Below are positions 29,700 through 56,726 of a stretch of 64,000 nt of DNA, one piece after another. Each line of letters begins with the position of its first letter. The first letter of the stretch is position 1. A program made the position numbers and the translations under genes. The notes under the pieces were generated by a model that was not told the DNA's origin, ran no database searches, and saw only the letters and a list, made by a program, of their open reading frames with translations. Origin of the DNA: Candidatus Latescibacterota bacterium (GTDB lineage Bacteria > Latescibacterota > UBA2968 > UBA8231); NCBI GenBank assembly GCA_965204725.1, contig OZ242005.1, positions 4,640,001-4,704,000 on the forward strand, given 5' to 3'.

Positions 29700-30058
29700 T
29701 GGTGGAGGCGGCGGGAATCGAACCCGCGTCCGAAACCGGTTCTACCGAAATATGCTACGTGCGTAGTCGGGCTTAGTTATCTCGCCTGTTGCGCTGCCGA
29801 CCGACGGGCCGCGCAACAAGCCAGCCCGAAAAATCTCATCCCATCCCCTCGGGCGCGAGTTTGGGACCAGCCTGCTAAGAGATGGCATTGGGACCTGTCG
29901 CGCAGGCTCAACAGGCCCCAATGGGCTGCGCTAAATTTAGGCAGCCAGAGCGTACGTGTTATTTTCGTCGCTTAATTGTTTCCCGAGGATTTACGAGGTG
30001 TCGGGACCTCGGCACGCAATTTGGGCTTTTCCGACCCCGTCGAAGCCATGTCGCCCCC
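29700..30058 (-). ncRNA. ssrA: tmRNA (359 nt); tag peptide (A)DENNTYALAA* at 29969-29937
   Basis: 5' GGGGGCGACATGGCTTCGAC, 3' GACGCGGGTTCGATTCCCGCCGCCTCCACCA, tag ending YALAA. Confidence 0.97.
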
Positions 30059-53348: not shown

Positions 53349-55322
<1,974 letters not shown>

Positions 55323-55344
55323 GGGCCGTTTGAGCAAAAAGCAG

Positions 55345-55374
55345 TTGACACGGTTCTTGGGCGTTAGTCATATT
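55345..55374 (+). promoter_or_regulatory. Sigma70-type promoter
   Basis: TTGACA-N18-CATATT preceded by an A-tract. Confidence 0.6.
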
Positions 55375-55379
55375 AAACG

Positions 55380-55680
55380 CAAGACGGGTTCAGGGGCCAT
55401 AAAGCCTCTGTTGCCGCCACGCTGAGGCTCGAGGCTACGCGAGCGAGCCAGCCCGGCTTTGTAACTGGCCGCAACGACGCGCAGAGTTGGAGTATGGATA
55501 TGAGGCGCGCACAAGCGAAAGGAGGTGGTCCATTGAGTAGTAATTGTACCGCAGGGAGGTTGATCACTTGATCAACTCCAGGTGATTAACTACCTGGTCA
55601 GGAGCTATGCGGCCCCGGTCGCGTAACTTCTGAGAGTACAGCCGGGCGCATCCCATCTTAGCGGGTGCGCCCGGTTTTTT
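55380..55680 (+). ncRNA. Candidate structured small RNA / micro-ORF transcript of unknown family
   Basis: Bounded by its own promoter and terminator; several hairpins; 16-nt complement to the 16S rRNA 3' end at 55517-55532. Confidence 0.55.
55641..55680 (+). terminator. Intrinsic terminator
   Basis: GCCGGGCGCATCC...GGGTGCGCCCGGT stem followed by a T-run. Confidence 0.85.
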
Positions 55681-55751
55681 GTTCGCGTTGGGCTTGATTG
55701 GTTCCCACGCGGTGTTTTTGCCATATTGTCCGCAAGGAGAGGAGGCCGAGT

Positions 55752-56726
55752 ATGAAGCGCGTCGCTAAGCCCGCAGGGGCCTATAACATCGTGATAGAAG
55801 AGGTCGAGATGCCGGCTATTGCTCCGACCGAGATTTTGATCCGCGCCGAGTGTTCGCTAATCAGCCGCGGCTCGGAGATTTGGCGTCGCTACGTGCGCGA
55901 AGAGGCGATAGACCATCGCGCCATGGGCTACTCGCTGGTCGGTCGAGTCGCAGCGGTTGGCTCGGCGGTCGAAGAGTTCAAAACCGGCGACTGGGTCGCG
56001 GCTCTGGCGCCGCACGCCGAATACGTGGCGGTCGAAGTCGTAGCCAGCCGACACAAGCCGGCGGTCGTGTCCTTGCCGCCGGGCCTGTCGCCCGAGGCGG
56101 GGACCTTCTGGCCGTTGGCAACCAGCTCGGTCCTGTGGATGTGGGAGACCGGGGCCGGTGCGGATCACGTCGTGGTCATCCAAGGGCAGGGCTTGGTCGG
56201 CAGCGGTTGTATGCAGGCGGCCAAAGCGCAGGGCGCGGGGCGCGTCATCGGGATTGATGCGTTGCCCTTGCGCTGCGAGTTGGCGCACGAGTTGGGGGCC
56301 GACGCGGTAATTGACGCCAGTGCCGGCGACCCGGTCGCGCAGGTCTTGGAGCGGACGGACGGAGACGGGGCGGACGTGGTGGTTGAGGCCGTTGGGGGTC
56401 GGGCTGGGGCGCGCGCTTTTGCCGAGGCGCAGGACATGCTCAAGCACGGCGGCCTCTTGCAGGTGCTGGGGCTGTACGAAGAAGAGCCGCTGCCGCTTTA
56501 CTCGGGCAAAATCATGGGCAAGCGCCTCGTAGGTAGCTACCTCGACCCCGGCCTGCGGCCCCAAGGATCGGCCCGGGCGCTAGAACTGTTGGCTACAGAC
56601 CAGATCCAGTTCGCCAAGATGATCACCCACCGCTTCCCCTACACCGAAGCGGCAGCGGCCTTCGACCTGCTCTACAATCGGTTGGGCGAGACGATGGCGG
56701 TATTGCTGATGTGGGAAACTGACTGA
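55752..56726 (+). CDS. MDR (alcohol dehydrogenase-like) oxidoreductase, canonical zinc ligands absent
   Basis: GQGLVG nucleotide motif, GADVVVEAVG, ITHRF; SLISRGSE and GYS replace the Cys/GHE ligands. Confidence 0.88.
   Translation: MKRVAKPAGAYNIVIEEVEMPAIAPTEILIRAECSLISRGSEIWRRYVREEAIDHRAMGYSLVGRVAAVGSAVEEFKTGDWVAALAPHAEYVAVEVVASRHKPAVVSLPPGLSPEAGTFWPLATSSVLWMWETGAGADHVVVIQGQGLVGSGCMQAAKAQGAGRVIGIDALPLRCELAHELGADAVIDASAGDPVAQVLERTDGDGADVVVEAVGGRAGARAFAEAQDMLKHGGLLQVLGLYEEEPLPLYSGKIMGKRLVGSYLDPGLRPQGSARALELLATDQIQFAKMITHRFPYTEAAAAFDLLYNRLGETMAVLLMWETD

Follow-up and report, generated by a model that had tools for sequence, protein, structure and literature searches.

We focus here on a transcription unit of about 300 nucleotides (nt) in a stretch of DNA from a Candidatus Latescibacterota bacterium (assembly GCA_965204725.1, contig OZ242005.1, positions 4,640,001 to 4,704,000; this whole 64,000-nt stretch is called the window below). 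The unit runs from promoter to terminator at window positions 55345-55680 on the forward strand, between the gene for methionyl-tRNA synthetase (metG, 53385-55322; Pfam tRNA-synt_1g and tRNA_bind) and a gene of the zinc-dependent dehydrogenase family (55752-56726; Pfam ADH_zinc_N). It is a conserved, single-copy, stand-alone gene. The RNA carries a 16-nt complement of the 3' tail of 16S rRNA (SD1, after Shine-Dalgarno, SD), followed by a 12-codon open reading frame (the mini-ORF; ORF, open reading frame) with a second, internal GGAGG (SD2), and the longest sense ORF within the unit is 25 amino acids (aa). An earlier note, made from the letters of the sequence, had described a promoter, some 300 nt free of a long sense ORF, an intrinsic terminator, SD1, and two hairpins at 55559-55576 and 55578-55597, and all of these were recovered at the same positions. 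The features are listed below; helix numbers are those of the RNAalifold consensus fold of an alignment, A3, made up of 14 sequences of the window's genus and 6 of another genus.

55345-55374 (+): sigma-70-type promoter, with -35 TTGACA at 55345-55350, an 18-nt spacer, and -10 CATATT at 55369-55374
55381-55680 (+): RNA proper, about 300 nt, its 5' end predicted from the -10 box
55391-55410 (+): 5'-domain hairpin H1 (CAGGGG / CCTCTG; helix 1), both-side changes in 3/6 pairs, 99% paired
55413-55418 (+): GCCGCC, possible long-range partner of GGTGGT at 55524-55529 (helix 2)
55426-55449 (+): 5'-domain hairpin H3 (GGCTCG / CGAGCC; helix 3), compensatory changes in 4/6 pairs
55451-55493 (+): 5'-domain long hairpin H5 (helix 5), 12 pairs, 97.5% paired, mainly wobble changes
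55517-55532 (+): SD1, GAAAGGAGGTGGTCCA, 16-nt complement of the 16S 3' tail with one G-U; GGAGG core at 55521-55525
55525-55552 (+): P1, GTGGT (55525-55529) with ACCGC (55548-55552), 93-98% paired, one-sided changes, start codon in the loop
55533-55571 (+): mini-ORF, TTG to TGA, 12 codons, peptide MSSNCTAGRLIT, stop TGA at 55569-55571
55552-55597 (+): switch region, in which the ORF end plus stop, GATCACTTGA, can pair with CAGGTGAT as one long hairpin, or two hairpins can form (55559-55576 and 55578-55597)
55555-55559 (+): SD2, internal GGAGG, 9 nt before the stop, kept as nucleotides
55598-55633 (+): stem TCAGGAGC / (G)CTTCTGA enclosing a small hairpin (helix 11), compensatory changes in 7/8 pairs
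55641-55680 (+): intrinsic terminator, a 13-pair G+C-rich stem (55641-55674) and then T6 (55675-55680), seen in the fold

Conservation and expression of the unit

The promoter is near consensus (10/12 matches) and is the sole sigma-70-like site in the 55000-56000 region, where shuffled sequences gave a mean of 0.2. Its TTGAC and TAT(A)TT boxes are kept in 24/24 sequences of the genus, even where the upstream flank differs. At the other end of the unit, the terminator helix (helix 13) has compensatory changes in 4 pairs; a terminator scan did not list this terminator, though it is present in the fold. A same-strand, syntenic ADH_zinc_N gene follows the element only in genera g1 and g16, and in g6, g12, g19, and g11 an unrelated gene in convergent orientation comes next (a URO-D-like gene, two sigma-54 activators, and a response regulator, each confirmed by Pfam). 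Because the neighbors differ between genera, the element is not the leader of one particular gene. The conserved promoter and terminator, together with these convergent and unrelated downstream genes, bear out the earlier proposal of a stand-alone transcription unit.

BLAST recovered the unit in 23/24 further genomes of the genus (identity 81-93%) and in 11/18 genera of the family. A covariance model of the 96-nt core of the element, R1, gave one strong match per genome in 69/76 family genomes, in 17/18 genera, and in 12/12 high-quality genomes. At 22 loci compared at the nucleotide level, identity to relatives was 81-94% for the element, 91-100% for its core, and 75-89% for the downstream gene, with the element more conserved than the gene at 22/22 of them; the protein of the downstream gene is 79-89% identical to its relatives (aa).

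A second element type, type B, occurs in families f2 and f4 of the class; there SD1 starts about 12 nt after the predicted transcription start, and the ORF reads MSDMTSGGGCS. R1 missed type B in f2, where a plain motif (SD1, 17-40 nt, GGAGG) found it in 31/31 genomes, and the negatives of R1, among them 0/36 genomes matched in a sample of other classes of the phylum, therefore carry little weight. Two genomes of family f4 hold both type B and type A, the type of the window element: G094 (C1:4924294 and C1:6904617) and G096 (C35:10666 and C704:2140). All other genomes of the class have one element type each.

Contigs from the RNA libraries of four metatranscriptome studies (164, 189, and 251 nt long, with many more of 53-96 nt) match the element at 90-99%. 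All those listed fall inside 55400-55655, so that they cover the unit alone; none extends to a flanking gene, and the word depth in one RNA-library run is about 11,000. This is good but indirect evidence of an abundant, discrete RNA in relatives. DNA runs labelled sponge or marine metagenome contain the stretch, which limits the habitat reading to "sponge-associated."

The 16S complement, the mini-ORF, and the fold

The single 16S gene detected in the genome ends in ...GCGGCTGGATCACCTCCTTTCTAAGG (also given as ...GGATCACCTCCTTTCTAAGG), and since this is the genome's own tail, the pairing over 15-16 nt with one G-U that the earlier note had drawn against a typical bacterial tail is right for this organism at the full 16 nt. 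The computed duplex of SD1 with the tail reaches -29.1 kcal/mol over 16 nt and -21.6 kcal/mol over 13 nt. The 13-nt GAAAGGAGGTGGT is the only invariant part of SD1 among 24 sequences of the genus, the bases after it varying (CCA, TCA, or TAA); bases 3-13 are invariant in 27/27 aligned sequences from several genera, and SD1 is the most conserved part of the element. The 5.43-Mb genome has two copies of the 12-mer AAGGAGGTGRTC, one in this element and one antisense to the 16S end, and as many of its reversed control, so that the count is unremarkable when taken alone. Chance is excluded because the motif GAAAGGAGGTGRT-N17-40-GGAGG is conserved in 120/132 genomes of the class, which is labelled Latescibacterota in public titles (64/75 in family f1, 31/31 in f2, 3/3 in f3, and 21/22 in f4), versus 6 matches to the reversed pattern overall, and the observation is thus confirmed as real. 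The invariant G of SD1 that forms the G-U with 16S would also make a G-C pair in P1, which would explain why it is never A.

Elsewhere in the genomes studied, a second 13-nt complement of the 16S tail, GAAAGGAGGTGAT, lies outside the window at locus L200 (G000:C1:3543899-3543939, reverse strand). It precedes a 56-aa, very hydrophilic ORF (MAKSRSGGGKAGADNRANQLNPNNDVYW...), with the same gene start in G070, and resembles an ordinary gene for a small protein, preceded by a very strong SD. At locus L044 (G050), a hairpin-plus-linker unit, CGGGATTGACCCGCTTAAAAGA, just upstream of SD1, is tandemly duplicated in this one genome.

The TTG that opens the mini-ORF (55533) stands 7 nt after the GGAGG of SD1. 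Across the class, the start is TTG, GTG, or ATG and the stop is TGA, TAA, or TAG, with the frame kept at 9-13 codons; the length differences seen are multiples of three, and within the genus two species lack 3 nt and one has 3 nt more. SD2 lies 9-11 nt before the stop and is read in three frames across clades (as GR, RR, GG, or EEV), and these shifts are compensated elsewhere in the mini-ORF, leaving its total length still a multiple of three. The peptide itself, 9-13 aa and hydrophilic, varies freely in its N-terminal half within the genus (N/K/T, C/R), and it is encoded by some of the rarest codons of the window's genes (AGT 8% of Ser, AGG 6% of Arg, and GCA 10% of Ala). Because the peptide is not kept but the frame and the GGAGG are, we conclude that selection acts on a ribosome start, on a stop at a fixed place, and on the GGAGG nucleotides.

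Other ways of reading this part of the RNA were tried and rejected. A longer ORF from the ATG at 55500 is interrupted by TAA in G017 and G015, for a start at the ATG at 55494 the frame is lost through a 1-nt insertion that many species have, and selenocysteine or read-through of the TGA is at odds with a post-stop frame that, on our reading, differs between genera. Right after the start, at 55533-55545, ATTGAGTAGTAA closes the two other frames (TGA, TAG, and TAA within 11 nt) and is invariant in most of the genus.

The element folds at -130.6 kcal/mol (z = -3.4). On A3, RNAalifold predicted a branched consensus of 80 pairs, with 97.9% of cells paired and compensatory, both-side changes in 23/80 pairs. 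None of 500 shuffles reached these values (0/500), and structures slid by 1-3 columns pair at 36-42%. Support is strongest for two 5'-domain hairpins, the stem at 55598-55633 (absent in several other genera), and the terminator. The earlier note's description of the RNA as structured is supported, with covariation in its helices. One pairing that it had placed around the hairpins, CCGCA/TGCGG, fails, occurring in 1/24 genus sequences (G000 only); the GTAC/GTAC pairing is invariant in 20/20 sequences, with no variation.

Around the start and stop codons the pairings appear to alternate. The GCCGCC/GGTGGT helix, found in g1 and g16 alone and showing one-sided changes, is a putative pairing that would hide SD1 in its 3' half. 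That 3' part of SD1 can also pair with ACCRC inside the ORF, as P1. Hairpins equivalent to P1 and differing in sequence are predicted in other phyla. In the switch region, RNAalifold prefers the long hairpin, and the ORF end and stop codon lie inside a hairpin whose opposite strand resembles an anti-SD. The recurring core segments are SD1 (AGGUGGUC), the ORF end (e.g., GAUCACUUGA or GACCACCUGA), a downstream purine arm (CCAGGUGAUC or CCAGGUGGUC), and a second pyrimidine arm (CCACCUGG in this family). By eye, the ORF end and the purine arm co-change between genera (GAUCAC/GUGAUC, GACCAC/GUGGUC, and CGUCUG/CAGRCG; further, GCGACC/GGUCGC versus GAGACC/GGUCUC), and the ORF end binds its own downstream region better than the median foreign one in 35/41 distinct cases (means -18.8 versus -15.0 kcal/mol). 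The purine arm can alternatively pair with the second pyrimidine arm, forming hairpin 2 (55578-55597). An Era-binding-site mimic, GAUCACCU, was considered and rejected, as other genera have GACCACCU, GACCGCCU, or GUCGUCU in place of this string.

Related designs in Rfam and in other phyla

At gathering scores, no Rfam family matched at the locus. Models of RNase P, signal recognition particle RNA, and transfer-messenger RNA (tmRNA) gave no match there either, and these RNAs sit elsewhere in the genome; the tmRNA gene is at window positions 29700-30058 on the reverse strand (RF00023, 209.9 bits, full length). The statement in the earlier note that this is not a known family therefore stands at the level of gathering scores, and it falls at the level of design, which is common to Ms_IGR-5 (RF02471), and in the matches of the CC2171 (RF01867) model, which picks out the element in many genomes of the family.

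Ms_IGR-5 is an Rfam small RNA (sRNA) of Actinobacteria, of unknown function. In a comparison of consensus sequences, its architecture was found again in the window element: a GGAGGUGGUCC ribosome site near the 5' end, an ORF of about 12 codons, a second GAGGUGG before the stop, a hairpin at the stop, and a terminator. The window element differs in having an extra 5' domain of about 130 nt and in belonging to a different phylum. The Ms_IGR-5 model scores 12.5 bits on it (gathering score 45 bits) and touches the element in 2/76 family genomes, at E about 0.9, so that type A is essentially unseen by the model. Type B scored 23.1-40.9 bits, with the whole model aligned, in 5/6 loci scanned, and the Gordonia locus L096 passes the gathering score at 45.2 bits. 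Homologs of Ms_IGR-5 are expressed in two Streptomyces species according to PMC8079986 and PMC8780764, and ribosome-protected reads on homologs in M. abscessus and M. smegmatis are reported in PMC4974804.

CC2171 is an alphaproteobacterial sRNA, also of unknown function, and was compared by model and consensus alone. Its Rfam consensus starts with GAAAGGAGGUGAUCCA, has a GUG 0 nt later, and continues in a multi-hairpin body closed by a long-range helix and followed by a terminator. The window element scores 21.9 bits against a gathering score of 75 bits. The element is nonetheless the best genome-wide match of this model in 44/76 family genomes (57 genomes have some match at E<=1), with scores of 17-37 bits, the best being 37.4, and 0/76 over the cut-off. 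CC2171 has been validated by Northern blot in Methylorubrum, with condition and function given as unknown (bioRxiv 10.1101/2022.01.24.477521). A search of the literature on CC2171 and Ms_IGR-5, with supplementary files outside its scope, found no functional study.

A stricter pattern, in which the GGAGG-to-stop distance and the class of the last codon were fixed, was scanned in one genome per species across 185,579 species and matched at least 119 stretches. By their titles, the matches listed include Candidatus Latescibacterota (some labelled Gemmatimonadetes or Handelsmanbacteria) and many Planctomycetota, as well as Tsukamurella, Gordonia, Patulibacter, Solirubrobacterales, Bdellovibrionales, Oligoflexus, KSB1, and Acidobacteriota; no title among these 119 names an alphaproteobacterium. 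A canonical start lies 6-11 nt after the GGAGG and in frame with the stop in 111/119 of the matches listed, with three more on inspection, and by our own arithmetic the random expectation for an in-frame start without an intervening stop is roughly one tenth. Folding predicts the same two hairpins in all phyla of the pattern loci, and the peptides of different phyla are unrelated, with no common motif among the matches listed. Patulibacter-type loci (L083, L088, L104, L108, and L151) have no in-frame ATG, GTG, or TTG; AUC is their only in-frame candidate at the right distance, and it is either a non-canonical start or the mark of a non-translated variant. High-G+C DNA around the out-of-phylum loci yields too many spurious ORFs for their gene context to be read. 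On the strength of sequence comparison, the window element is a divergent variant (type A), not filed before, of a widespread class of translated small RNAs that includes Ms_IGR-5.

Some details of these loci may be recorded here. Planctomycetota loci (L089, L101, L116, L128, L142, and others) have Cys-rich mini-ORFs (e.g., VTSDCCCCQGGGTA) and a conserved CGGCGGGCTG-like box, and about 70 nt downstream they carry GGATCACCTC, which is identical to the 16S tail itself and could mask SD1. Type A records, so far from Latescibacterota, are labelled Latescibacterota, Gemmatimonadetes/Gemmatimonadota, or Handelsmanbacteria, and in the case of L150 Planctomycetota; because one type carries several phylum labels, some of the public labels look inconsistent.

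How the RNA may work

The best explanation of these observations, which we favor tentatively, is that this stand-alone, strongly transcribed sRNA gene encodes a translation-gated regulatory RNA, which a ribosome engages and briefly translates and in which the change of RNA shape matters, not the peptide. The steps of its action, as we infer them from the sequence features, would be as follows. The 16S 3' tail would pair with SD1 at its open GAAA and its GGAGG and extend into UGGUCC, and this extension would displace P1, or the GCCGCC long-range helix, exposing a weak start codon. The ribosome would then read 9-13 codons and in doing so would have to melt hairpin P2, where an SD-like GGAGG is predicted to pair with an anti-SD-like strand (CACCU). 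Termination would take place at the stop in or beside the P2 loop, with the anti-SD of the ribosome then at the right distance to hold SD2. The freed pyrimidine strand could re-pair with SD1, shutting the site, with the alternative arm to form hairpin 2, or in trans with the SD of another mRNA. The RNA would in this way report or buffer translational capacity.

Several points weigh against a switch of this kind. The RNA of the window itself is known from sequence comparison and computation, and the RNA-library contigs, which come from relatives 90-99% alike, can neither give the strand and ends of a transcript nor rule out DNA as their source. In P1 and hairpin 2, the core helices, the changes are limited to wobbles, and shuffled controls do equally well. 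The predicted unpaired probability is 0.36 for SD1 (0.74 for its GAAA) and 0.34 for SD2, and SD1 is predicted to be more open than SD2 in only 53/104 sequences; because the accessibility of the two is alike, an "SD1 open, SD2 closed" state is not supported by thermodynamics. The GGAGG-to-stop distance and the last-codon class were set by the search pattern and are not findings for the out-of-phylum set. Some C-terminal residues are constant within a clade (e.g., TAGRLIT), which leaves room for a role of the peptide. Finally, the switch is given an output, be it in cis, in trans, or as a sponge, purely by inference.

We give a much smaller chance to an alternative that is still serious: that this is a micro-peptide gene, whose 9-13-residue product (here MSSNCTAGRLIT) is functional and whose RNA structure only tunes very high translation. 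The earlier note had named a highly translated micro-ORF as an option, and the frame, conserved through varying start and stop codons, backs it. SD1 is very strong, the C-terminal half of the peptide is constant within clades (e.g., T-[A/T]-G-R-x-I-T in several genera), and in several phyla the internal GGAGG comes after a recurring Cys or Ser/Thr-rich stretch. However, the peptides of different phyla have no motif in common, the conserved GGAGG is read in three frames, the N-terminal half is variable within the genus, and the mini-ORF uses rare codons. The constant C-terminal residues are explained by constraint on the RNA, because their nucleotides pair in P2. A peptide gene would, moreover, have no use for a 5' domain some 130 nt long or for a 3' stem, both of which covary.

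It is unlikely that the RNA acts as a sponge for the 30S subunit or its anti-SD, titrating free 30S through the 13-16-nt pairing without being translated, as 6S RNA titrates RNA polymerase. 6S RNA mimics an open promoter, and by analogy the window RNA, which resembles an initiation site, could be another abundant, housekeeping-like RNA that imitates the substrate of a core machine. It differs from 6S in being branched, not a rod with a central bubble, and the 6S model (RF00013) had no match at E<=1 in the whole genome. The strength of the duplex (-21.6 to -29.1 kcal/mol), the presence here of the sole non-rRNA AAGGAGGTGRTC site in the genome, the very high contig depth in RNA libraries, and the combination of three SD-like and two anti-SD-like segments in one RNA all speak for a sponge. 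Such a sponge, the leading idea of the earlier note, would leave unexplained the survival of start, stop, and frame despite indels and changed codons; the CCA that carries the pairing on into helix 45 is not conserved, and by prediction SD1 spends about two thirds of its time paired.

We consider it rather improbable, too, that the element is a leader-peptide attenuator that senses the charging of Ser, Thr, or Cys tRNAs and controls the downstream Zn-dehydrogenase gene in cis, or an sRNA derived from such an attenuator and acting in trans. For the latter there is a published precedent in rnTrpL, which is reported to act in trans as well (PMC6614838). Like rnTrpL and the classical attenuators, the element places a short translated ORF among alternately pairing segments (SD1, the ORF end, the arm, and the 3' arm) and ends in an intrinsic terminator, and the same-strand ADH_zinc_N gene is syntenic in g1 and g16. 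Unlike them, it has neither a conserved downstream operon nor a regulatory codon repeated throughout the family. No same-strand downstream gene is conserved beyond those two genera, the next gene in others being convergent and unrelated. The ORF is Ser/Thr-rich here and has 2-4 Cys codons, up to four of them consecutive, in Planctomycetota, but there is no such run in Tsukamurella or Gordonia (MVNFRTEEVAAA), and the actinobacterial and many Latescibacterota ORFs lack a repeated regulatory codon. The terminator is a separate hairpin that takes no part in the alternation, and no competing antiterminator was seen in the consensus folds.

A type I toxin-antitoxin-like unit, suggested in the earlier note and favored only by a strong SD before a small ORF, is hardly credible: type I toxins are hydrophobic peptides, roughly 20-60 aa long, whose genes are overlapped or adjoined by an antisense RNA, whereas the peptide here is hydrophilic and 9-13 aa long, any ORF on the opposite strand would be disrupted by 1-nt indels of the genus alignment, and the element is single-copy and nearly universal in the class. 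With the toxin and the translation-free sponge set aside and the stand-alone, structured transcript with its conserved anti-16S segment and micro-ORF retained, the interpretation given in the earlier note is partly supported.

The translation-gated reading can be widened, speculatively and with considerable doubt, to a family of abundant sRNAs in at least five phyla. These would be ribosome-gated switches with a 16S toehold, a run of 9-13 codons that melts a helix mimicking SD:anti-SD pairing, and an anti-SD left on the GGAGG, and they would measure or buffer free translational capacity as a ribosomal counterpart of 6S; Ms_IGR-5, and perhaps CC2171, would then be two clades of one ancient system.

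Ms_IGR-5 and CC2171 have stood in Rfam for years without a function, and the element described here ties an RNA of Latescibacterota to both. Comparison alone shows which of its parts are under selection, namely the 16S-tail complement, a translated frame with a changeable peptide, an internal SD whose distance from the stop is fixed, and a stop inside a hairpin with an anti-SD-like strand. The result is a concrete and testable design for an RNA that would work by being translated; it is now clear what to mutate, and Streptomyces and Mycobacterium smegmatis offer tractable hosts for the Ms_IGR-5 branch. If the element proves to be only a micro-peptide gene, it would still be among the shortest conserved coding genes known. 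If ribosome availability is what it senses or buffers, it would represent a widespread layer of translational control.

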